A stretch of DNA of 32,000 nt from Telmatocola sphagniphila (GCF_018398935.1 NZ_CP074694.1:4650001-4682000), one strand, 5' to 3'; shown: positions 4,588 to 32,000, counted from the stretch's first letter. Translations and numbers: made by a program. Notes: generated by a model from the sequence alone, not told the origin.

Positions 4588-5670
4588 TTAGCGTTGAACG
4601 CGAGCAGATCCACCTTTGGCGAAGGCTTCCACTTCCTCGAGTTTCGCCATGGTGACGTCGCCGGGGAAAGTGGTGAGCAAGGCTCCGTGAGCCCAGCCGA
4701 GCCGCAGGGCTTCCTCGGGCGAACGGCCCGTGATCAAACCATAGATCAGACCGGCCGCAAAGCCATCGCCACCGCCGATGCGGTCGTGAACGTCCAGGTG
4801 CGTTGTCGGACTGATGTAGCGATGCCCATTGAGCCAGACGACTGCAGCCCACTCGTGGCGATTGGTGGAATGAACTTCTCGAAGGGTGGTGGCCACGCCT
4901 TTGATGTTAGGGTATTTGTGAACCACGCCGTCTATGGACTTGAAGAAAACCTCAGGATCGAGTTTCGAGGTTGCATGGACATCCGGCCCGGTGATCCCAA
5001 GACCTTTTTGCAAATCCTCTTCGTTACCGATCAGCACATCGACATTTTCGACAATTCGGCCCATAACCTCATGCGTTCTTTTCAGGCCTCCGATGGCGGC
5101 CCAGAGTTTGGCCCGGTAATTCAAGTCGAACGAGACGATCGCCCCGGCGGCCTTGGCGGCCTGCATGCCTTCGATAATCAGTTCCGCGGTGGTCTCCGAA
5201 AGGGCCGCGAAAATGCCACCCGAGTGGAACCAGCGAACGCCGCTGGCGAAGATCTTTTTCCAGTCGAAGTCGCCGGGCTTGAGCAACGAGCCGGCTTCGT
5301 TGGATCGGTTGTAGAAGACGACCGGCGCTCGAACGCCGAGACCGCGGTCGCTGTAGACGGTGGCGATGTTGGGGCCGCGCACGCCGTCATGGTCGAACCA
5401 TTTGTAGAACGGGGTTACGCCGGCTTCGCGAACGCGGGCCTGCACCAGTTCGCCGATGGGATACTTCACCATGGCGGTGGCGACGCCGGTCTTCAGGCCG
5501 AAGCAGTCGGCCAGATTGGCCGAGACGTTGTATTCACCGCCGGAGACGTGAATATCGAAAGAACGGGCTTTGCGAAACGGAATCAGACCCGGGTCGAGCC
5601 GGTGAACTAAAGCCCCTAGAGAGAGAAAATCGAGTTCGCAAGCATCGGTCCGGATATTCAGTGAGTTCAT
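4588..5670 (-). CDS. PfkB-family sugar kinase, 2-dehydro-3-deoxygluconokinase-like
   Basis: ATG at 5670, 360 aa. C-terminal GGGDGFAAGLIYGL matches the PfkB signature-2 region. Overall length and the N-terminal LSLGALVHRLDPG layout resemble KdgK-type members. Substrate is not certain. Confidence 0.75.
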   Translation of the reverse strand: MNSLNIRTDACELDFLSLGALVHRLDPGLIPFRKARSFDIHVSGGEYNVSANLADCFGLKTGVATAMVKYPIGELVQARVREAGVTPFYKWFDHDGVRGPNIATVYSDRGLGVRAPVVFYNRSNEAGSLLKPGDFDWKKIFASGVRWFHSGGIFAALSETTAELIIEGMQAAKAAGAIVSFDLNYRAKLWAAIGGLKRTHEVMGRIVENVDVLIGNEEDLQKGLGITGPDVHATSKLDPEVFFKSIDGVVHKYPNIKGVATTLREVHSTNRHEWAAVVWLNGHRYISPTTHLDVHDRIGGGDGFAAGLIYGLITGRSPEEALRLGWAHGALLTTFPGDVTMAKLEEVEAFAKGGSARVQR

Positions 5671-10610: not shown

Positions 10611-11012
10611 GAGCCGCGGGTTAATAGACACGGGTTAATAGACACGGGTAAGAAACCCGCGGCTCAATTCTGGAAGCCCTCCGGGCTTCCAATTAGAAGG
10701 TTACAAAATCGATGGAAGCCCGGAGGGCTTCCAGATTACAGACCCCGGTTGACTCGCTCTGCGAGGCTACCGGGGGGGAACAGGCACGCAACGCGAGGCT
10801 ACCGGGGGGGAACCAAAAAATACGCCCTAACAAATATTTTCCCCGGGTTAAAAACCCGTGGCTCAATTCTGGAAGCCCTCCGGGCTTCCAATTAGAAGAG
10901 GACAAAATTGATGGAAGCCCGGAGGGCTTCCAGATAACAGACCCCGGTTGACTCGCTCTGCGAGGCTACCGGGGGGGGAACAGACACGCAACGTGAGGCC
11001 ACCGGGGGAAAT
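10611..11012. repeat. Left array of composite REP-like hairpin repeats (two ~199-bp units)
   Basis: A leader stem GAGCCGCGGGTT...AACCCGCGGCTC (10611-10665) encloses 2x CGGGTTAATAGACA. Hairpins TGGAAGCCC-TCCG-GGCTTCCA lie at 10671 and 10870. Their reverse complement, TGGAAGCCC-GGAG-GGCTTCCA, lies at 10713 and 10912. Each unit also carries 2x CGAGGCTACCGGGGGGG. The array ends GAGGCCACCGGGGGAAA. Confidence 0.9.
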
Positions 11013-11031
11013 GAAAATGAACGCTAACCCA

Positions 11032-11484
11032 TCATTCCCAAACATATCGTTCGTCGTATTCAATCCGGTATTGGTGCAACCAATCGCGATATTCCTCCTG
11101 GTAAGAAATCTTGCGATGATGCTCTCTTTGATTGCGAATGTATATTTGGATTTGTTCCAAAAAGGATTCGCTGACGGAAAACGCTCCATAGCCTTTCTGC
11201 CAATAAAAGTTTTCCAGCGAGGAATCAACCTTTTTGAGCCAGATACTGGAGGATCGTTTGACTTCCTGGACGATCTCGGCCAGACACATCGTTCGAGATT
11301 GAACGAACAGGATATGCACATGATCCGGTTCCGAGTTCATCTCGATCGCCGGAACCTCCAGCTCCCGCAGAATACCCCCGAGGTAATCATGAAATCGGGA
11401 ACGGAACGAATCGAGCAAAAGAGGAAGCCGGTATTTGGTCGAGAAAATGAGATGGACGTACAACTTCGAAAGCGAATGAGCCAT
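11032..11484 (-). CDS. IS200/IS605-type HUH Y1 transposase, REP-associated (RAYT-like)
   Basis: MAHSLSKLYVHLIFSTKYR, HUH motif DHVHILF, WQKGYGAFSV and the catalytic-Tyr region IQIYIRNQREHH. The ATG at 11484 is preferred over the listed TTG at 11502. A hand-counted sample (11041-11100) gives ~45% GC, lower than neighbouring genes. Confidence 0.85.
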   Translation of the reverse strand: MAHSLSKLYVHLIFSTKYRLPLLLDSFRSRFHDYLGGILRELEVPAIEMNSEPDHVHILFVQSRTMCLAEIVQEVKRSSSIWLKKVDSSLENFYWQKGYGAFSVSESFLEQIQIYIRNQREHHRKISYQEEYRDWLHQYRIEYDERYVWE

Positions 11485-11585
11485 GGGCGATGTCTCCGAC
11501 AAGTAAGAATTGATGAAGATTTATATCGATTACGTGCGATTAACTAGGCGCAGAAAATACTGACGAAAATTTGACGGGTATAGAT

Positions 11586-11962
11586 GGGCCCGGGTTAATT
11601 ATCGCATCGGATAATAGCCCCGGGGATTACATCCCCGGGTTAAAAACCCGTGGCTCCGATCTGGAAGCCCTCCGGGCTTCCGAATAAATGGTTACAAAAT
11701 TGATGGAAGCCCGGAGGGCTTCCAGATAACAGACCCCGGTTGACTCGCAAAGAGAGGCTACCGGGGGGAAACAGACACGCAACGCGAGGCTACCGGGGGG
11801 GAACCAAAATATACACCTTACCAAATATTTTCCCCGGGTTAAAAACCCGTGGCTCAAATCTGGAAGCCCGGAGGGCTTCCAGATTATAGACCCCGGTTGA
11901 CTCGCATAGCGAGGCTACCGGGGGGGGAAACAGACACGCAACGCGAGGCCACCGGGGGAAAA
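11586..11962. repeat. Right array of the same composite repeats, in the same orientation as the left array
   Basis: It starts with CCCGGGTTAAT, as the left array does. Hairpins lie at 11662 (TCCG loop), 11704 (GGAG loop) and 11861 (GGAG loop). The last unit lacks the first hairpin and spacer. There are four further CGAGGCTACCGGGGG copies. The array ends GAGGCCACCGGGGGAAA, like the left array. Confidence 0.9.
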
Positions 11963-24779: not shown

Positions 24780-26144
24780 GTGTCTCAAGCACGAGCATTG
24801 GAATTACTGCGTGAAGGAATTGCCGCCGCACGAGCGGGCGATAAACCACGGACGCGGCAACTGTTGAGCCAGAGCACTGCGCTCGATCCTACTAACGAAA
24901 TTGCCTGGCTCTGGTACGCCGGGGTGACCGATTCACCTGCGGAAGCTCTTCGCTTTCTGGAAAAAGTTCTGCAAATCAATCCCCGGAACGAGCGGGCACT
25001 GACGGGCATTAAGACGGTTCGGCTGCAGGCGGGGATTGCAGCGGCCAAGGCTCAAGATCGCAGCGGGGCTCGCGATCTGCTACGGTTGGTGGTCGCCGAG
25101 GAGCCGCGTAACGAAGTGGCTCTCATGTGGCTCGCGGGGGTTACGGATTCGCCCGAAGAGGCCCTGGGCTATCTTCTCCGCGTTCTGGAGATCAATCCAA
25201 ACAACGAAAGAGCCAAGAGCGGGGTCACTTACTACCAGAACAAGATTCCCAAAGCGCCGCCGGTCACTCCCGCGCCGGAACCGCTCTCACCGCCTCCAAT
25301 TTCCCTCGAGAAAAGTTCGGCCGTCTGGATCTGTCCGTTCTGCTCCACAGGTGCGGAAGTCAAACTCAATCGCTGCCCCAATTGCCGGGCGATCCAGGTT
25401 CCGCATCAGATCAATCTGGAAACCTTTACGCCGGATGTCGATCGCGAGAAGATTCGCACCGCCGTCATGAAACTGACGATGCAGCTGCGGACCAAGCCCG
25501 ACTACGCTTCCAATTACAATCTCGGTTTGGCCTGTCTGAATCTGGGCCGGATCGATGAATCGATCCATCACTTCACGGCGGCGCTTCGCTTTCAGCCCGA
25601 TAATGAAGCGCTCGATGTCTTTTTACAGCAGCTCGAACAGAGAAAAACCACCCCGGAGCGGGCTTCGATTCGCGTGCCTGCGAAATCGAACCCGGTCGTG
25701 GCCGGAGCGATGCGTCCGCCGACGCCGAAGCCGTTATCCTCGGATTCCGGGTCCAAGCGGATGATCCTGGTTGTCGACGACAGTCCGACGATTCGCAAGC
25801 TGGTGGCCATGACCATGATCAAAAACGGTTACCGGGTCGTCGAAGCCAGCGAAGGCAACGAAGCGGTCACTCGCATGCAGGAACAGGGCACTCCCGATCT
25901 GGTGCTCCTCGATATCAACATGCCCGGGATGGATGGCTACACGCTTTGCAAGCTGATCCGTCAGAAGCCGGAAACGTCCAAAATTCCGGTGATCATGCTG
26001 TCGGGCAAGGATGGTTTTTACAACAAAATTCGTGGGAAAATGGCAGGTTCGACCCTTTATCTGACCAAGCCCTTTCAACCCGATGCTTTGCTGAAAGTCG
26101 TGCAGAAGTACTGCCCGGCGGATGGGATGGCCGTCACCGCTTAA
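24780..26144 (+). CDS. PilG-like response regulator: duplicated TPR-like module, 4-Cys zinc ribbon and C-terminal receiver domain
   Basis: GTG at 24780 with GAGGAG 7 nt upstream. Two ~72-aa repeats read ...NEIAWLWYAGVTDSPAEALRFLEKVLQINPRNERA... and ...NEVALMWLAGVTDSPEEALGYLLRVLEINPNNERA.... The zinc ribbon is CPFCSTGAEVKLNRCPNC (about 25332-25385). The receiver runs from about 25755: ILVVDDSPTIRKLV...LLDINMPGMDGY...VIMLSGKDGFYNKIRGKMAGSTLYLTKPF. That sequence closely resembles Pseudomonas PilG as I recall it. Confidence 0.8.
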   Translation: MSQARALELLREGIAAARAGDKPRTRQLLSQSTALDPTNEIAWLWYAGVTDSPAEALRFLEKVLQINPRNERALTGIKTVRLQAGIAAAKAQDRSGARDLLRLVVAEEPRNEVALMWLAGVTDSPEEALGYLLRVLEINPNNERAKSGVTYYQNKIPKAPPVTPAPEPLSPPPISLEKSSAVWICPFCSTGAEVKLNRCPNCRAIQVPHQINLETFTPDVDREKIRTAVMKLTMQLRTKPDYASNYNLGLACLNLGRIDESIHHFTAALRFQPDNEALDVFLQQLEQRKTTPERASIRVPAKSNPVVAGAMRPPTPKPLSSDSGSKRMILVVDDSPTIRKLVAMTMIKNGYRVVEASEGNEAVTRMQEQGTPDLVLLDINMPGMDGYTLCKLIRQKPETSKIPVIMLSGKDGFYNKIRGKMAGSTLYLTKPFQPDALLKVVQKYCPADGMAVTA

Positions 26145-26176
26145 AATTCACCGCGAGATAAGTTCAACGGGAAGTT

Positions 26177-26755
26177 ATGAGTTCGATCCTTCGCCCAAGT
26201 CCTGTCGCACCGTCCAGTTCGGCTCCCCGAGCGGTCCCCGCCGCTGCGCTTCCCGATTCTGAAAAATTTCTGACGGAGCTGTGCGATTTTTTGACGAAGC
26301 TCGATCAGGAGCGCGAAATTCTGCGACAGGTCGAACTTCCGGCCGATGCCGAGCGAGCCGTTCAGACGGTGTACCAGCTGGTGGATAGTATCGTGGAGTT
26401 TGCCAACGAGCGGTTTGGCATCAACCATCGGCACGAGAAGTTGCAGGCGACGATTCTGGAATTTTATCAGGACTCGAACGAGCTGTTACCGAGCCTGCGA
26501 CGCCGACGCTTTCAGCGCTCGTTGACGAGCGGCGAATTCGCTGCCCAGAAGGGGCTGATCGCCCGGGTATTGAACTTGTTTGTAGAAGCGTTGTATCTTC
26601 AGTTCGAGTTTTTCACGAGCCAGTTGGCCGATCGGCGGCACGCCCGAATCTGGGTGGAAGCCGCCGCGGTTTTCTGCGTCGACGTGCAGCGAATTTTAAG
26701 ATCCTACGGTTTAACTGAAACGGAAGTACGAAGGAATTCAGGACATGACGAATAA
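26177..26755 (+). CDS. Hypothetical 192-aa, predicted mostly helical protein inside the chemosensory cluster
   Basis: ATG at 26177. The ORF ends 11 nt inside the next gene, implying coupled translation. Codon usage and GC look native. I recognise no motif. The N-terminal 30 aa are Pro/Ser/Ala-rich. Confidence 0.5.
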   Translation: MSSILRPSPVAPSSSAPRAVPAAALPDSEKFLTELCDFLTKLDQEREILRQVELPADAERAVQTVYQLVDSIVEFANERFGINHRHEKLQATILEFYQDSNELLPSLRRRRFQRSLTSGEFAAQKGLIARVLNLFVEALYLQFEFFTSQLADRRHARIWVEAAAVFCVDVQRILRSYGLTETEVRRNSGHDE

Positions 26756-27110
26756 CACCATTCTGATCGTAGACGACTCTCCCACGGAACTCAAGATTGT
26801 GACCAATGCTTTGCGCAATCGGGGTTATCGCATAGTCACGGCCATCGATGGCGATGAAGCTCTGCAGAAGGCTTCGCACGAGAAGCCCCGGCTGATGCTC
26901 CTGGATGTTGTGCTGCCGAAGAAAAATGGTTTCCAGGTCTGCCGGCAATTGAAGAACTCGGCCGAGACCAAGGACATCAAAATCATTCTTCTGACGAGCA
27001 AAAGTCAGGATAGCGACCGCTACTGGGGCATGAAGCAGGGTGCGGATGCTTATGTGACCAAGCCTTTTGAAGAAGCAGAACTGCTTTCCAGTGTCGGTGC
27101 CTTCATGTAA
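26745..27110 (+). CDS. Single-domain CheY-like response regulator, PilH-like
   Basis: ILIVDDSPTELKIV...LMLLDVVLPKKNGFQVCRQLK...IILLTSKSQDSDRYWGMKQGADAYVTKPF resembles PilH/PixH-type receivers. AGGA lies upstream of the ATG at 26745. Confidence 0.88.
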   Translation: MTNNTILIVDDSPTELKIVTNALRNRGYRIVTAIDGDEALQKASHEKPRLMLLDVVLPKKNGFQVCRQLKNSAETKDIKIILLTSKSQDSDRYWGMKQGADAYVTKPFEEAELLSSVGAFM

Positions 27111-27225
27111 GCATTTTCCCGCGCGGAATTTTCCTGCCTCGCCCGAAATGATGTCCTAGATTTCTTCCAGACTCTCAAATATTTTGTGCCGTCCTGTGCG
27201 GCACTGCAACGGGGTTGCCGCTGCT

Positions 27226-29043
27226 ATGACACCTCCAGAAGAAGAGGAAAATATCTCGTTCGAGCTGGTTCTGCCCGGTGCAGACGAGCCATCGAGTATT
27301 GGTTGGCTGGCTCCGCCGAGTCCCCCGGACGGGAATGAATCTCCTCTTCCCGGCTGGCTCAACAACGAAACTTCGGGAGAGGAATTTCGTTCGGGACTGG
27401 TCCCTTCTTCCCCCACGATTATCCGCAAGGTTCGGCAATCCACGCTGATCGTTCGCCGAGATGAAATCGAGCGGGATGCTTTAACCGCCAAAGCCCCGAA
27501 TGTGCCGAATGCATCGACACTTCCTCCCGAAGCTCTGAAAAAAGCCGTCAAGAATCCCCTGGTTTACGGGCTCATCGCCAAAGTTTCGCTGCCGCGCCCC
27601 GCTTTTCAGTTTAAGATCGAACACGATCTGCCCGCGAATGTCGCATTACTGGATGTGAAACCGAAAGCGGCGGTCGTTGGCAATCGCATCATCTGGAGTT
27701 TCGGCCGCGTTGATCCGGGCCAGGAAATCCGCCTTCAACTGGTGATTCAGCCCGAGGAAGGTGCGGTCATCAACCCGTCCGACCTCGCCGTCTTTGAAGC
27801 CGGTTACAAGCAATCGCTGCATTTTCAAACGCCCATCGCCCGGCCGCGGCTGTCGGCAGTGGCAGATGGTCCCATTGAAATGCCGATGGGAACCTGGGAA
27901 ACCGTCCGGCTGCAAATTCGCAATTCGGGCAACTGGCCGGTGAAGAACGCCATTGTTCGCGGACTGCTGCCGACCGGCTTGAAGCTCGGGGAAAATGCTC
28001 CGACTCAGGAAGAAATCGGTTTATTGCTGCCGGGAGAAGTTTACGAATTCAGCTACCGGGTGCGAGCCACGCAGGAAGGTCCGCAGACCATCCTCTTCGA
28101 ACTCAGCGGTTCCGATAATACTTCCTGCCAGGTGGAACGGACCATCGTCGTCCTGGCCCCCAAGCTCGAACTTCGCATCCCGGGGCCAATTCGGGCGGCT
28201 CAGGATCAGGAAGTCGAATTTCAACTCGAGCTTTCCAACTTCGGCCGGGCCTGCACCGAGCAATACGAAGTGTATCTCGATTACTCGGCCCACCTTGAGC
28301 CACTCAAGTTCGAGCGCGGTTCCATCGATTCGGTCCGTCGTCGCCTGAGCTGGACGGGGCCGGCCATGCAGCCGAACTCGGAAGTCTCCTATCCCGTTCG
28401 CTTCAAGACCGCTCAACTGGGAATCGCCGAGTTGAACGTCGAAGTTCGAACGGCCAGCGGTGCACGCATCAAATCGAGCCGGTCGCTGACGATCGAAAAG
28501 CAAACCGACCGCAAGCGCGAGATTCAGGAACAGTTCATCGCGTCGATGGAAGCTCGACTCAACGTGGGATTTCCCGCAGTTAGCGGGGCCGCCGATGCGA
28601 CTGTCGAAACCAGTCAGCACATCGTTTTCAGCATTCATAATTCCGATTTTGCTCTGCCGATGTCTGTCGTGCGTGAAGTCGGCCGGGCTCCTCATACGAC
28701 ACCGGTGCCCAACGTACCCGATTGGTTGGTAGGCCTGGCGAACATACGAGGCGAGATCGTCTCGGTCGTCGATCTCGCAGGCTTCCTGCAAATCAATTCC
28801 TCGGGCGATACGGCCGAGAAGCGAATTCTGGTCGTGCGTAGCCAGCAAAGCAGCGTGCAGACGGCCTTGATCGTCGATCGCATCCGCGGCCTGAGAAATT
28901 TGAACGAACAGACCTTGCAGCCTATGGAAATCGCGTCGCCGTTCGTGCGCGGCCGAGTCGAATCGCAAGGTCTGGAGATATCGCTTCTGCAGACGGAGGA
29001 GATGTTGAATTCTCCCCAGATGCGGCAGTTTGAAATTTATTAA
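27226..29043 (+). CDS. CheW-domain adaptor (PilI-like) with a ~460-aa N-terminal extension containing three Ig-like (DUF11/CARDB-like) repeats
   Basis: The C-terminal CheW domain runs from about 28615: HIVFSIHNSDFALPMSVVREVGR...PDWLVGLANIRGEIVSVVDLAGFL...RILVVRS...ALIVDRIRGLRNL. The N-terminal repeats include LPANVALLDVKPKAAVVGNRIIWSFGRVDPGQEIRLQLVIQP, TVRLQIRNSGNWPVKNAIVRGLLPTGLKL...YEFSYRVRATQEG and EVEFQLELSNFGRACTEQYEVYLDYSAHLEPL...VSYPVRFKTAQLG. No signal peptide or TM helix is present. The ATG at 27226 is preferred over the listed TTG at 27184. Confidence 0.8.
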   Translation: MTPPEEEENISFELVLPGADEPSSIGWLAPPSPPDGNESPLPGWLNNETSGEEFRSGLVPSSPTIIRKVRQSTLIVRRDEIERDALTAKAPNVPNASTLPPEALKKAVKNPLVYGLIAKVSLPRPAFQFKIEHDLPANVALLDVKPKAAVVGNRIIWSFGRVDPGQEIRLQLVIQPEEGAVINPSDLAVFEAGYKQSLHFQTPIARPRLSAVADGPIEMPMGTWETVRLQIRNSGNWPVKNAIVRGLLPTGLKLGENAPTQEEIGLLLPGEVYEFSYRVRATQEGPQTILFELSGSDNTSCQVERTIVVLAPKLELRIPGPIRAAQDQEVEFQLELSNFGRACTEQYEVYLDYSAHLEPLKFERGSIDSVRRRLSWTGPAMQPNSEVSYPVRFKTAQLGIAELNVEVRTASGARIKSSRSLTIEKQTDRKREIQEQFIASMEARLNVGFPAVSGAADATVETSQHIVFSIHNSDFALPMSVVREVGRAPHTTPVPNVPDWLVGLANIRGEIVSVVDLAGFLQINSSGDTAEKRILVVRSQQSSVQTALIVDRIRGLRNLNEQTLQPMEIASPFVRGRVESQGLEISLLQTEEMLNSPQMRQFEIY

Positions 29044-29138
29044 TGGCCTGACGGCCGACCTCCGCCGCTCCCGTACGAGCGTGGAGAGTATTAACCGATT
29101 GAGTAGATCTCGAACTCTATTGAGAGTAGGTAGAACTG

Positions 29139-30632
29139 ATGAACCCCTTATCGAAATTCAGCAACCTGCGCGTCTGGCAGAAACTGACTCTCGTGGCCGT
29201 GGCCCTGACCATGCCGATCCTGATGCTCGCTTATCTGACCATCGCGGGTGGTCGGGGCGAACAGTCTTCGGTCACTGCCTTCGTGGTCATTCTTTTAGGG
29301 GGCGGCCTGGCCGGCTGGCTGATGTATGCGATCACCCGCTCGGTGAATCGGCAGACGCAGTCGATCCGCGCCATGTTCGAGCAGATTTCAGTCGGGAATA
29401 TCGACGCCCGAGCCGAAGTGATCACCGGGGATGAACTCGGCGAGATCGCCAACGGCCTCAACGCCATGATGGATAACATGCGAAGCCTCATCCAGTCGCG
29501 CGAAGAGCGAGATCGGATGCAGGGCGCAGTTATGAAACTGCTCGAAGAAGTTTCCGGCGTCGCCGATGGGGACCTCACTAAGGAAGCCGAAGTGACCGCC
29601 GATGTGACTGGCGCCATCGCCGACTCGTTCAACTATATGATCGGCCAGTTGCGAATGGTTATCGGCAACGTGCAGCAGACCACTCGCCAGGTTTCCCGCT
29701 CGGCCACCGATGTCTACTCCTCCGCGAAGAATCTGGTGGGCGGTACCGAACAGCAATCGAAGCAGATCGTCAGTACTTCCGAGGCCGTCGAAGAGATGGC
29801 GGGCTCGATTCAACAGGTTTCGGAAAACGCCATCGTCTCGGCTCAAGTGGCCGAGCAGGCTCTGAAGAATGCCCAGGCTGGTAACTCGGCCGTGAAGAAT
29901 ACCATCTCCGGGATGGACCGCATTCGCGATCAGGTGCAGGAAACGGCAAAACGCATCAAGCGGCTGGGTGAATCGACGCAGGAAATCGGACAGATCGTGC
30001 AGTTGATCGACGATATCGCCGACCGCACTTCGATCCTCGCTTTGAACGCTTCGATCCAAGCCTCGATGGCCGGGGAATCGGGCCGCGGCTTTGCGGTGGT
30101 CGCCGAGGAAGTGGAACGATTGGCCGATCGGTCGACCGATGCCACCCGCAAGATTGCCACGCTGGTGAAGACGATTCAATCGGAAACCAACGAAGCGGTC
30201 GGGGCCATGGAAAAGGGTATTCAGGAGGTGGTGGAAGGTTCTCGCCTCGCTTCGCAGGCCGGTCAATCGCTGGCGGAAATTGAAGCCGTTTCCAAGAAAC
30301 TGGCCGAGTTGATTTCCTCGATCTCGACCGCATCCCGTCAGCAGGCCAGAGCCTCTGAAGGGGTGGCCAAGTCGATGAACGAAATTTCCGCAATCACCCA
30401 ATCGACCGCGGCGGGTACCAAGAACGCGGCTTTAGCAGTCTCCAATCTCGCCGGACTGGCAGAAGATCTTCGACAATCGGTTTCGATGTTCCGCTTACCG
30501 CGAACCGGCCAGACTGAAGACGGCACCTCGAATTCTCCCCGAGCAACTCGGGCCGGCCTGGATCTCTCTTCCATGCCGAATGTGGGCGGCAATAACAAAC
30601 CCAAAGAAGCGATGCCGGTAACCCGGTTCTAG
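29139..30632 (+). CDS. Methyl-accepting chemotaxis protein, PilJ-like, with a membrane hairpin and no sizeable periplasmic domain
   Basis: Two TM helices are separated by about 10 residues (LTLVAVALTMPILMLAYLTIAG / AFVVILLGGGLAGWLMYAI). A HAMP region follows (GDELGEIANGLNAMMDNM). The segment LLEEVSGVADGDLTKEAEVTADVTGAIADSFNYMIGQL is typical of PilJ/PixJ-type receptors. The signalling hairpin reads ILALNASIQASMAGESGRGFAVVAEEVERLADRS. Confidence 0.9.
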   Translation: MNPLSKFSNLRVWQKLTLVAVALTMPILMLAYLTIAGGRGEQSSVTAFVVILLGGGLAGWLMYAITRSVNRQTQSIRAMFEQISVGNIDARAEVITGDELGEIANGLNAMMDNMRSLIQSREERDRMQGAVMKLLEEVSGVADGDLTKEAEVTADVTGAIADSFNYMIGQLRMVIGNVQQTTRQVSRSATDVYSSAKNLVGGTEQQSKQIVSTSEAVEEMAGSIQQVSENAIVSAQVAEQALKNAQAGNSAVKNTISGMDRIRDQVQETAKRIKRLGESTQEIGQIVQLIDDIADRTSILALNASIQASMAGESGRGFAVVAEEVERLADRSTDATRKIATLVKTIQSETNEAVGAMEKGIQEVVEGSRLASQAGQSLAEIEAVSKKLAELISSISTASRQQARASEGVAKSMNEISAITQSTAAGTKNAALAVSNLAGLAEDLRQSVSMFRLPRTGQTEDGTSNSPRATRAGLDLSSMPNVGGNNKPKEAMPVTRF

Positions 30633-30645
30633 AAATCGAAACTCT

Positions 30646-32000
30646 ATGGATTTCAGTACCGGAGATACTCCGATGAAGAAGAAACCCGATGCGGAACTGC
30701 TGGCCGATTTCGTCGCCGAGGCCAAGCAGTATCTGACGCTGATTCCCGGTTATCTGGAGACTTTTCTGGCCGATAACAGCCAGGGAGAATCGATCCAGGA
30801 AGTCTTCCGGCTCTCGCACAGCATCAAGGGCGCGGCCTCGATGGTCGGCCTTCCGGAACTGAGCGAACTGGGTTACAAGCTGGAGCGCGCGGCCGAGGAA
30901 ATCGGGATGAATCCCGAGTGGGCCAGCACGGATAATCTCGAGTTGTTCCAGGAAACCCTGAACATCATCGGCGCTTATCTGGAGCGCTGTGCCGACGGCG
31001 ATTACGAGGATACTTCCGATCTTCAGGCTCTGACGCAAATCTGGGAAGAACCCACAGCCGCCTTCTCCGCCGAATCTCCTTCGCGTTTGCTGAAGATGGA
31101 CTATAGCGAGGAGGGCCCGGATTTCGGTTTCGATCCCGGCGAGCCCGACCTGGGAAGTTTCGAGCCCGCCGTCGCCGAAGAAAACAGCAGCAGCGAACCC
31201 ATCCCGCCGGAACTTCTGGAAATCTTCGCGTTGGAAGCGGAAGATCACCTCAAGAATATCACCACGCTGCTTCCCGAATTGCAGAACCAGCCGGAAGCCC
31301 GCGATCTGATTCAACAGATCCGCCGCAGCGCTCATACGCTAAAGGGCTCGGCGGCCATGGTCGGCTTCCACGACATCACCCATCTGTCGCACCGGATGGA
31401 AGATCTACTCGATCAGATGTACGAGGAAGGACGCAAGACGACCCCGGAGATTCTGAGCATCCTGTTCAAATCGACGGACGTGCTGGAAGACCTTTCCAAG
31501 GGCCAGAATCGTTCGAGCGAACTGAAAGCCCTCTACGGCGATTTCGAACAGATCCTTCAAGGAACCCCACTGGAATCGGCCGTCGAAGCCGAGGCCCCAG
31601 CGACGGTCGCCGTACCCGTCGAAAGACCCCCCGAGCCCAAGAATGCCCCGATTCCCGCACTGGAGCGGATTGCGGCGGCTCTGGCTGCGGGCAAATTGGT
31701 CGCTCCGGCTCCGGCAGCGGCGACTCCCGAGAAAGCCCGCCGCTCGGGCCAGTTTCTGCGCGTGCCGATCGAAAAATTGGACGATCTGGTGCGCCTGATT
31801 GGCGAGCTGGTCATCAGCCGAACCGAATTCGAACAACGCCTCAGCAATTACGTCCGCCAGATCGAAGAACTCCAGCTAAGCTCCTCGCGGCTGCGCCGTG
31901 CGGCCACCAAGCTGGAAACCGAATACGAAGCCCGCACGCTGGCCAGCAGCCGGTTGCGCAACTTCCCCGGTAAGAACGGCTCTTACCCGATGTTGTCGCT
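30646..32000 (+). CDS. ChpA/PilL-like CheA histidine kinase N-terminal part with at least two Hpt domains; 3' end beyond the window
   Basis: My own translation from the ATG at 30646 is open to nt 32000, so this ORF is absent from the supplied track, which listed no ORF without an in-window stop. Hpt 1 is VFRLSHSIKGAASMVGLPELSELGYKLE. Hpt 2 is IRRSAHTLKGSAAMVGFHDITHLSHRMEDLLD. Next come LRVPIEKLDDLVRLIGELVISRTEFEQ and a coiled-coil-like segment. An alternative start is the ATG at 30673 (MKKKPD). Confidence 0.8.
   Translation, partial: MDFSTGDTPMKKKPDAELLADFVAEAKQYLTLIPGYLETFLADNSQGESIQEVFRLSHSIKGAASMVGLPELSELGYKLERAAEEIGMNPEWASTDNLELFQETLNIIGAYLERCADGDYEDTSDLQALTQIWEEPTAAFSAESPSRLLKMDYSEEGPDFGFDPGEPDLGSFEPAVAEENSSSEPIPPELLEIFALEAEDHLKNITTLLPELQNQPEARDLIQQIRRSAHTLKGSAAMVGFHDITHLSHRMEDLLDQMYEEGRKTTPEILSILFKSTDVLEDLSKGQNRSSELKALYGDFEQILQGTPLESAVEAEAPATVAVPVERPPEPKNAPIPALERIAAALAAGKLVAPAPAAATPEKARRSGQFLRVPIEKLDDLVRLIGELVISRTEFEQRLSNYVRQIEELQLSSSRLRRAATKLETEYEARTLASSRLRNFPGKNGSYPMLS

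Follow-up and report, generated by a model that had tools for sequence, protein, structure and literature searches.

Here we describe a six-gene operon in a 32,000-nt stretch of Telmatocola sphagniphila DNA (the window), which probably encodes a type IV pilus (Tfp) class chemosensory system acting on the pilus motor via the TPR-Cys4-TPR module of its PilG-like protein. By sequence comparison the operon is homologous, component by component, to pilG-pilH-pilI-pilJ-chpA and to pixG-H-I-J-L, and it is a stripped-down form of a pilus-class system in a flagellum-less planctomycete.

Table 1. Features of the chemosensory operon (window coordinates)
Feature	Position	Strand	Product or remark
PilG-like response regulator	24780-26144	+	454 aa
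Four-cysteine motif inside the PilG-like protein	25332-25385	+	putative zinc ribbon
Helical protein (the "orphan" ORF)	26177-26755	+	192 aa
PilH/PixH-like single-domain receiver	26745-27110	+	121 aa
PilI-like Ig-repeat CheW protein	27184 (TTG) or 27226 (ATG) to 29043	+	619 or 605 aa
PilJ-type chemoreceptor	29139-30632	+	497 aa
ChpA/PixL-like kinase	30646-33639 (1.6 kb past the window)	+	997 aa

The six ORFs that the earlier note had placed on the plus strand were all confirmed, in the same order and at the same positions, as intact co-directional frames, and the receiver and MCP motifs it had cited were found exactly in the sequence. The spacing is tight, with successive gaps of 32 nt, an 11-nt overlap (the stop of the helical protein gene over the start of the PilH-like receiver gene), 73 or 115 nt, 95 nt and 13 nt. 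The gene order (CheY-like, CheY-like, CheW, MCP and CheA-receiver hybrid) is that of the Tfp class. Sequence beyond position 32000 contains the kinase core and receiver domain. CheR and CheB (PilK/ChpB) genes, previously reported missing between the MCP and the kinase, are indeed absent there and also downstream of the kinase, where a TIGR03067 lipoprotein gene is followed by a convergent M14 peptidase gene. With CheR, CheB and a second CheW all missing from the operon, the pathway is predicted to have no methylation-based adaptation of its own. The only CheR and CheB of the genome are located in a second Che cluster, 3.1 Mb away.

Each signalling domain was compared with a reference panel of named Tfp, Wsp/ACF, F1, F7 and other systems, and in every case the top match was the corresponding Pil-Chp or Pix protein. 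The Tfp-class reading is supported because of these best matches and because the orthologous cluster of Gemmata obscuriglobus (TPR-REC, REC, Ig-CheW, MCP, CheR, CheA-REC, CheB, CheW) has the exact pilGHIJK-chpABC order. The Pil-Chp/Pix-like class proposed by the earlier note is thus upheld by the panel matches, the receptor tree, the gene order common to Acinetobacter, one cyanobacterium, G. obscuriglobus and Chloroflexi, and the lack of flagellar genes. Homologues of the operon proteins are also labelled PilJ and ChpA by JGI, and PixL by one source.

The receptor has two TM segments, at about aa 15-38 and 44-66, which form a hairpin around a loop of no more than ~10 residues, together with HAMP and a signalling domain of ~40 heptads (Pfam HAMP and MCPsignal, at 1.1e-41), with the tip at E313 and a C-arm of ~138 aa. 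It has no periplasmic domain and no obvious sensing domain; receptors of relatives, including that of the G. obscuriglobus cluster, carry a periplasmic domain of ~290 aa. Sensor-less receptors of the same family were also detected in Limnoglobus and among many proteins from metagenomes, 450-490 aa long. Over 348 aa, the T. sphagniphila receptor shares 52% identity (330 bits) with A. baumannii PilJ, without indels in the signalling domain. The cyanobacterial receptor scored 220 bits, while Tar (128 bits), the Wsp receptors (~115 bits), the Sphingomonas (F-class) receptors and the second receptors of the same genome remained within 95-128 bits, identity to Tar, Wsp and Sphingomonas receptors being about 27-30%. 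The receptor tree placed it in a clade with PilJ at 85/89, with the Wsp receptors on a long separate branch.

In the kinase, Pfam identified two Hpt domains, the dimerisation domain, HATPase_c, CheW and, at the C-terminus, a receiver; it found no P2 domain. Both Hpt domains (HSIKG in Hpt1, HTLKG in Hpt2) retain the H-[ST]-[IL]-K-G phosphosite, and the dimerisation domain (P3) has a ~90-aa insertion relative to Salmonella CheA. Multiple Hpt domains, a C-terminal receiver and a longer dimerisation domain are Tfp traits, which are not exclusive and partly belong to the ACF class as well (PMC10782961). Among named proteins, the kinase core matched A. baumannii ChpA best (36% identity, with 99% of the core covered, 6e-83), and the kinase receiver matched the ChpA receiver best in the panel. 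The CheA core tree, which is poorly resolved, places the family with the ChpA of gammaproteobacteria (83/82), and the sole cyanobacterial reference fell outside this group.

By panel matches and shared C-terminal motifs, the operon contains a receiver pair of PilG type and PilH type; the deep branches of the receiver tree are poorly resolved. In the PilG-like protein, two TPR-like units of ~72 aa precede a CxxC-x10-CxxC motif, which is followed by another TPR and the C-terminal receiver (aa 329-441); Pfam detected TPR families and Response_reg at 7e-28. The top panel match of this receiver is A. baumannii PilG (40% identity, 108 bits). Orthologues were found in Gemmataceae, G. obscuriglobus and Chloroflexi. 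The cysteines of the putative zinc ribbon, C185, C188, C199 and C202, are invariant in six orthologues, one of them from a Chloroflexi MAG. The second receiver (Response_reg at 4.9e-27) is 64-69% identical to its counterparts in relatives. In the panel it scored highest against the cyanobacterial PixH-like protein (46%, 123 bits), followed by A. baumannii PilH (42%, 104 bits), and with both it shares the motif [ST]K.Q..D..WG..QGA..Y..KP.

The PilI-like protein has an acidic, Pro-rich disordered N-terminus, Ig-like beta-sandwich domains and a C-terminal CheW domain (aa 478-610; Pfam CheW at 1.9e-24), the latter having its top panel match in the A. baumannii ORF in the pilI position. The Ig-like part gave a weak match to DUF11/CLIPPER (PF01345; 25.7-27.2 bits, cut-off 24.6). 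AF2 modelled two beta-sandwich domains at residues ~205-425 of the ATG form (pLDDT ~90) and a third, preceding beta region at ~113-200 with low confidence (pLDDT ~40-64). CLIPPER/DUF11 domains are extracellular isopeptide Ig-like domains (PMC12617251). An extracellular location was rejected for the domains of the PilI-like protein, since the fused CheW domain must be cytoplasmic, and we found no signal peptide or TM and no hydrophobic segment at the N-terminus. Paralogues bearing the same Ig-like repeats do have signal anchors. The Ig-CheW fusion was also detected in three other sampled genomes (G039, G040 and G014), G. obscuriglobus and one JGI contig.

The helical protein between the two receivers, described as an orphan in the earlier note, turned out to have a family: a profile search retrieved 78 representative homologues, which range from 88 to 231 aa and mostly measure 160-230 aa, and an ORF of this family fills the same slot in four related loci. 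It has no Pfam match even at E<=10 and no NCBIfam match, and its AF2 model is a five-helix bundle (pLDDT 72). HHalign aligned it with the final ~165 residues of three PATAN proteins at a probability of 95.5-97.4%, matching only their C-terminal non-PATAN part. In Chloroflexi, PATAN proteins occupy the helical-protein slot and carry its domain as the C-terminal tail. These profile alignments indicate that the helical protein is homologous to the tail domain of Chloroflexi PATAN proteins, as a stand-alone copy. In Synechocystis, PATAN serves as the output domain that binds PilB and PilC (PMC11181946). We rejected the helical protein as a PATAN regulator itself, since neither the protein nor the whole genome has a match to the PATAN (DUF4388) domain.

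Elsewhere in the genome, where the earlier note had proposed looking for pil genes, there is a pilus gene cluster at 4.540-4.554 Mb, about 100 kb upstream of the operon, with genes for prepilins, PilC, two PilB and PilT; the genome has nine T2SSE-family ATPase matches. No pilus genes adjoin the operon, which counts against the pilus-class explanation. In the proposed mechanism, the membrane-anchored, sensor-less PilJ-type receptor, the Ig-repeat CheW protein and CheA would form the array, and CheA would autophosphorylate on an Hpt histidine, the intact sites of which are seen in the sequence. Phosphate would then pass to three receivers, those of the PilG-like and PilH-like proteins and the C-terminal one of CheA itself, with the PilG-like protein as the probable output and the PilH-like protein as a potential antagonist or phosphate sink. 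The output may be mediated by the TPR-Cys4-TPR module, probably with the co-translated helical protein; the two would stand in for PATAN, which in cyanobacteria binds PilB and PilC, and the predicted target is the pilus motor (two PilB, PilT and PilC, with the prepilins).

The Pil-Chp systems of P. aeruginosa and Acinetobacter have the same gene order, PilG/PilH-type receivers and a multi-Hpt kinase with a C-terminal receiver, and the A. baumannii locus, whose PilJ aligns with the receptor described here throughout the cytoplasmic domain, also lacks CheR and CheB. In comparison with Pil-Chp, the T. sphagniphila PilG adds about 320 aa of TPR-Cys4-TPR, PilI is extended by about 460 aa that comprise a disordered linker and the Ig-like domains, a helical protein is inserted between the two receivers, the receptor is devoid of the periplasmic domain, and FimL or FimV partners were not identified. 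The kinase has two Hpt domains, whereas the current count for P. aeruginosa ChpA is nine (PMC10782961). The cyanobacterial Tax1/Pix system has the same five-gene order (pixG, pixH, pixI, pixJ, pixL), likewise without CheR/CheB; its first regulator has an N-terminal output domain and its second is a bare receiver (PMC11181946), and its kinase has the C-terminal receiver and long dimerisation domain (PMC10782961), all as in T. sphagniphila. Unlike Tax1/Pix, the output domain here is TPR-Cys4 and not PATAN, the receptor contains neither a GAF nor a phytochrome photosensor, and CheW has the Ig extension. Pilus regulation by Acinetobacter Pil-Chp and by cyanobacterial Tax1 has been studied experimentally (PMC12139848, PMC11181946). 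Since the Acinetobacter and cyanobacterial loci also lack CheR/CheB, the absence of these genes, which the earlier note took as a sign of a divergent pathway, is not unusual for the class.

The closest kin outside the family are uncharacterised clusters of Chloroflexi/Anaerolineae (MAG contigs JACRMI010000009, JBFOMV010000132 and JAUUVR010000045), with 53-54% identity in the kinase core and 68% in the receptor signalling domain; across Chloroflexi and Acidobacteriota together, the identity of these two regions is 53-68%. The Chloroflexi clusters encode the same TPR-Cys4-receiver protein and have the orphan domain in the same slot, where it is fused behind PATAN (DUF4388), unlike the stand-alone copy in T. 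sphagniphila. Beyond the T. sphagniphila set, they encode a ParA/MinD-like ATPase, CheR and CheB as well as another CheW; in the two clusters where Pfam detects a receptor sensor it is dCache, and the CheW extension is shorter, with no Pfam-detected domain. Given these relatives, the pathway is not specific to one lineage, contrary to the earlier suggestion that it may be. The additions to three components noted at that time (TPR with zinc ribbon, Ig-like repeats and the helical ORF) are present, but they are not idiosyncratic, as they are conserved in relatives, the TPR-Cys4-receiver protein and the orphan domain also in Chloroflexi. CheR/CheB, the second CheW and the sensor domain, absent in comparison with the Gemmata cluster, are read as putative losses.

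Several other explanations have been considered. A flagellar (F class) chemotaxis cluster is extremely improbable: grouping of the kinase with flagellar-class kinases is not rejected by the CheA core tree on its own (p-AU 0.16), but flagellin, FlhA and FliG are absent from the closed, 99% complete genome, the receptor shares just 27-29% identity with those of Tar and Sphingomonas type, and the kinase, multi-Hpt with a receiver and an extended dimerisation domain, lacks a Pfam-detected P2. CheZ, CheC and CheD genes are absent too. Decay of the operon to a remnant with no useful signalling, after loss of the sensor, CheR, CheB and the second CheW, is very unlikely as well, even though the G. obscuriglobus cluster has all of these and the system was found in only about 5-6 of the 60 other Gemmataceae genera sampled. 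The six frames are intact and tightly spaced, with one start-stop overlap, relatives share 66-73% identity in the signalling domain of the receptor, and the His and Asp phospho-acceptor motifs are retained; moreover, sensor-less receptors recur in Limnoglobus and metagenomes, and CheR/CheB genes are also missing from the Acinetobacter and cyanobacterial loci examined.

The alternative with more in its favour, although still unlikely, is a system that is Tfp-like by descent and has another function via the TPR module, for instance the control of holdfast or exopolysaccharide, budding-cycle polarity or second-messenger levels. The Pil-Chp system of P. aeruginosa also controls cAMP. The output module is a generic protein-interaction TPR and not PATAN, the operon is separated from the pilus genes, and this genome, which lacks a flagellum, needs a non-flagellar output for its second Che cluster as well. 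Several other Gemmataceae CheA-REC kinases are labelled ACF in the accessible part of Table S2 of PMC10782961, with lengths that differ from that of the orthologue found here. Wsp (ACF; Pseudomonas, Ralstonia) is a non-flagellar pathway too, with a C-terminal receiver in its kinase, but it has CheR-TPR, two CheW, CheB and a diguanylate-cyclase output, while CheR-TPR, diguanylate cyclase and other ACF-type output genes are absent from the T. sphagniphila operon. We rejected ACF (Wsp-like) membership according to this missing gene set, the low receptor identity (28-30%) and the kinase tree, in which a clade with the Wsp kinases was rejected at p-AU 0.03. A pilus-system protein is the top named match of every component, and PATAN proteins are present in the clusters of relatives, both of which count against another function.

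Within this pilus-class reading, it is conceivable, though we consider it rather doubtful, that the TPR-Cys4-TPR module with the helical protein constitutes an undescribed output adaptor without PATAN, that Ig-CheW builds a distinct array, and that the output domain has been replaced stepwise. If so, the Gemmataceae/Chloroflexi series of PATAN-REC, TPR-REC with a PATAN-tail protein, TPR-REC with the tail, and TPR-REC alone would represent the replacement steps.

The six-gene chemosensory cluster proposed in the earlier note was recovered as six plus-strand ORFs, all but the orphan with Pfam matches (see table), and the kinase ORF continues past nt 32000. No CheR or CheB gene lies between the receptor and the kinase, as that note had stated, and none was found elsewhere inside the operon or adjoining it, the downstream neighbours included. 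The stop of the orphan helical protein overlaps the start of the PilH-like gene. A TIGR03067 lipoprotein gene begins 4 nt past the kinase stop (37 nt if an internal Met is used) and is probably co-transcribed with the kinase; beyond it lie a strong hairpin, present twice, and an M14 peptidase gene in convergent orientation. The sigma-70 consensus scan 5' of the operon gave no match above chance.

Coordinates of the operon, its 3' flank and related features (window coordinates unless a handle is given; G000, the T. sphagniphila genome; L001, its stretch containing the window end and the downstream sequence; L093, L098 and L099, Chloroflexi cluster loci)
Feature	Location	Strand	Size	Domains or remarks
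ORF 1, PilG-like	24780-26144	+		Pfam TPR families and Response_reg
ORF 2, orphan	26177-26755	+		No Pfam match
ORF 3, PilH-like receiver	26745-27110	+	121 aa	Pfam Response_reg
ORF 4, Ig-CheW	27184/27226-29043	+		Weak Pfam DUF11/CLIPPER match and CheW
ORF 5, receptor	29139-30632	+		Pfam HAMP and MCPsignal
ORF 6, kinase	30646-33639	+	997 aa	Pfam Hpt (two), dimerisation domain, HATPase_c, CheW and receiver; ORF extended past window end
TIGR03067-domain protein	33644-34093 (L001 3644-4093)		149 aa	Lipoprotein-like signal (MRTLVFFLLFGGC)
19-nt palindrome copies	10672-11880; 34229-34247, 34432-34450 (L001 4229, 4432)			
Second chemosensory cluster	G000:C1:1573302-1582044			Outside window; Ser/Thr-kinase-REC-REC, CheA, CheW, MCP, CheB, CheR
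Ig-repeat paralogues	G000:C1:5918830-5920875, 4785335-4787245, 5345960-5348317		636-785 aa	
ParA/MinD-like ATPase, Chloroflexi	L093 3911-4666, L098 3451-4203, L099 4108-4863			Between PilH-like gene and CheW

The assignment of the operon to the pilus chemosensory class (Tfp), as first read in the earlier note, is supported by BLASTP comparison, the receptor tree and the cluster order in relatives. NCBIfam has no PilG, PilH, PilJ or ChpA models and its matches were uninformative here; in place of class HMMs, a reference panel was built from annotated, named records. The panel included Tfp-type loci from A. baumannii (pilG-pilH-(pilI)-pilJ-chpA) and the cyanobacterium Allocoleopsis (PATAN-REC, REC, CheW, MCP, CheA-REC), a Pseudomonas megaplasmid Chp-like locus, a Deinococcus radiodurans locus, three Wsp-type (ACF) loci, and the Salmonella (F7), Bacillus (F1) and Sphingomonas flagellar-type loci. 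Each operon domain was searched by BLASTP against all panel ORFs. The receptor matched PilJ with 52% identity over 348 aa (330 bits), against 220 bits for the cyanobacterial receptor, 128 for Tar, about 115 for the Wsp receptors and 95 for the second receptor of the same genome. The top panel matches were PilG for the receiver of the first protein (108 bits), a PixH-like protein and PilH for the 121-aa receiver (123 and 104 bits), the pilI-position ORF for the CheW domain and the ChpA receiver for the C-terminal receiver of the kinase. In the plasmid collection, the top named match of the kinase core was A. baumannii ChpA (36% over 99% of the core, E 6e-83). Homologues are labelled 'PilJ' and 'ChpA' by JGI and 'PixL' by one source; the PilH-like receiver, searched by sequence against the PDB, matched generic receivers only and no PilH or PilG structure.

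The receptor tree unites the operon's family with PilJ (85/89) and sets the Wsp receptors apart on a long branch. The kinase tree, which is less well resolved, places the family with gammaproteobacterial ChpA (83/82) and the cyanobacterial reference elsewhere; topology tests on it rejected a Wsp clade (p-AU 0.03) and did not reject an F-class clade (p 0.16). The receiver-domain alignment was too short and the deep nodes of its tree were unresolved. Among the rows of Table S2 of PMC10782961 that precede its Tfp rows, the Gemmataceae CheA entries are ACF; the G. obscuriglobus orthologue of our kinase (1025 aa) was not matched to the 977-aa protein listed there. The dimerisation domain of the operon kinase is about 90 aa longer than in flagellar kinases, which therefore align to the kinase core only from about residue 130, and the longest CheA dimerisation domains belong to Tfp kinases of Chloroflexota and Cyanobacteria (PMC10782961). 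The receptor-PilJ alignment has no gaps across the signalling domain, and the hairpin tip at E313 with an arm of about 138 residues indicates a class of ~40 heptads; for input, the receptor has no more than a two-TM hairpin followed by HAMP.

The same cluster, with an ORF in the orphan's slot, was detected in a further three genomes of Gemmataceae, and one 411-kb JGI contig carries it as well. The Gemmata obscuriglobus cluster has the full pilGHIJK-chpABC order (TPR-REC, REC, CLIPPER-CheW, MCP, CheR, CheA-REC, CheB, CheW) and lacks the orphan. About 0.7 kb 5' of it is a small gene (5307-5624 of that locus, L095, CP042911) in which a weak prepilin N-methylation motif was seen, the sole physical hint of a pilus link. 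Clusters in Chloroflexi MAGs encode a TPR-REC (or REC-PATAN) protein, a PATAN protein, REC, a ParA-like ATPase and CheW, followed by the receptor, CheR, CheA-REC, CheB and CheW; their receptors carry a large periplasmic sensor region, a dCache where Pfam detects a domain. The ATPase recalls the ParC/ParP systems, which position chemosensory arrays.

CheR, CheB, the second CheW and the periplasmic sensor domain, all present in the G. obscuriglobus and Chloroflexi clusters, are missing from our operon and are read as candidate losses. The Limnoglobus roseus receptor (CP042425) is likewise sensor-less; only the MCP, CheA-REC and a 309-aa CheW stand together there, and the PilG-like and PilH-like genes do not adjoin them, which indicates that the operon can be split. 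Full-length kinase orthologues were present in about 5-6 of the 60 other Gemmataceae genera sampled, and the PilJ-type receptor domain in none of the 150 other Planctomycetota genomes sampled (E<=1e-70). Identity to the Chloroflexi relatives reaches 53-54% in the kinase core and 68% in the receptor domain; this high cross-phylum identity, together with the patchy distribution, suggests horizontal spread of the operon family.

The additions that the earlier note had called non-canonical are present, but they are not a private oddity: the TPR-Cys4-TPR-receiver family is conserved across two phyla with its four cysteines invariant, and the Ig-CheW fusion recurs within Gemmataceae.

The orphan has no Pfam or NCBIfam match, and its AF2 model is a five-helix bundle (pLDDT 72) for which Foldseek against the PDB returned generic helical bundles without a significant fold match (best E 0.09). 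A search with a five-member alignment recovered two proteins only, low-complexity words having swamped the candidates; an exhaustive search with a two-sequence profile yielded 78 representative proteins, most of 160-230 aa, with end-to-end matches. In HHalign, the whole helical part of a 75-sequence profile aligned to three proteins with a PATAN domain, in each case to the C-terminal ~165 aa (probability 97.4%, 96.7% and 95.5%; E 1e-11 to 1.5e-8); these proteins stand in the orphan's position in the Chloroflexi clusters. This match and the shared position argue that the orphan is a detached PATAN-tail domain, as judged by profile comparison. Neither cyanobacterial PixG nor the DUF4388 protein of Deinococcus aligned with the profile. 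The reading of the orphan itself as PATAN was rejected, given the lack of a Pfam match, the absence of any DUF4388 match in the whole genome and its alignment to the C-terminal part of the PATAN proteins.

The Ig-CheW protein begins with 110 disordered residues lacking a hydrophobic segment, and its AF2 model has confident beta-sandwich domains spanning residues ~205-425 (pLDDT ~90; numbered from the ATG start). DUF11 was recently renamed CLIPPER, which denotes an extracellular domain (PMC12617251), and this makes a cytoplasmic copy in fusion with CheW unusual. The Ig-repeat paralogues in the genome are envelope-protein-like, with N-terminal signal anchors and Pro-rich linkers, and similar proteins are numerous across Gemmataceae. 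It seems that the module in the CheW fusion was taken over from envelope proteins. The related-locus search of genome contigs with the Ig-CheW query gave no usable match.

The closed 6.59-Mb T. sphagniphila genome (99% complete) encodes two CheA, two MCP, one CheR and one CheB. Flagellin, FlhA and FliG had no match in the whole genome, the same searches being positive in flagellated control genomes, so neither chemosensory pathway can drive a flagellum. The search for pil genes elsewhere in the genome, which the earlier note had advised, revealed a cluster at 4.540-4.554 Mb with three prepilin-like genes, a PilC-like gene, PilB, PilT and a second PilB; the T2SSE-family ATPase has nine matches genome-wide. 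The second chemosensory cluster encodes a 647-aa Ser/Thr protein kinase with two receivers, a 769-aa CheA with two CheW-like stretches and a 646-aa MCP. Its output must be non-flagellar in the absence of flagellar genes, and is perhaps the kinase-receiver hybrid.

We propose that the receptor, Ig-CheW and kinase would form a signalling array. Within it the Hpt histidines may donate phosphate to the PilG-like protein as output regulator, to the PilH-like protein as antagonist or sink, and to the receiver of the kinase itself. The target, most likely the pilus motor, would be contacted by the TPR-Cys4 module, probably in concert with the helical protein. No methylation enzymes are encoded in the operon. 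PixG and PixH are antagonistic in Synechocystis, where the PATAN domain binds PilB1 and PilC (PMC11181946), and PilG and PilH are antagonistic in P. aeruginosa (PMC10519157).

We found no papers on pilus-class chemosensory systems in Planctomycetes in the literature searched. Pseudomonas, Acinetobacter and cyanobacteria are the main organisms in which such systems have been dissected, and the route of the PilG-type regulator to the pilus motor differs by system, through FimL/FimV in one and PATAN in the other. The operon family in Gemmataceae, Chloroflexi and Acidobacteriota potentially represents a third output solution, the TPR-Cys4 module either by itself or accompanied by a PATAN-tail protein, and adds a CheW with cytoplasmic Ig-like domains. 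Its variant series provides a natural experiment in output-domain exchange and in how modules for adaptation and sensing may be lost, and the retention of two chemosensory pathways by a non-flagellated planctomycete raises the question of what each controls.

The hairpin following the gene after the kinase is a 19-nt perfect palindrome, GGA[A/T]GCCCTCCGGGC[A/T]TCC, with 7 matches in the window against 0 expected by chance. Copies occur mostly as inverted pairs at ~40 nt spacing, with two more 3' of that gene, and resemble a family of dispersed hairpins of REP-like or terminator type.
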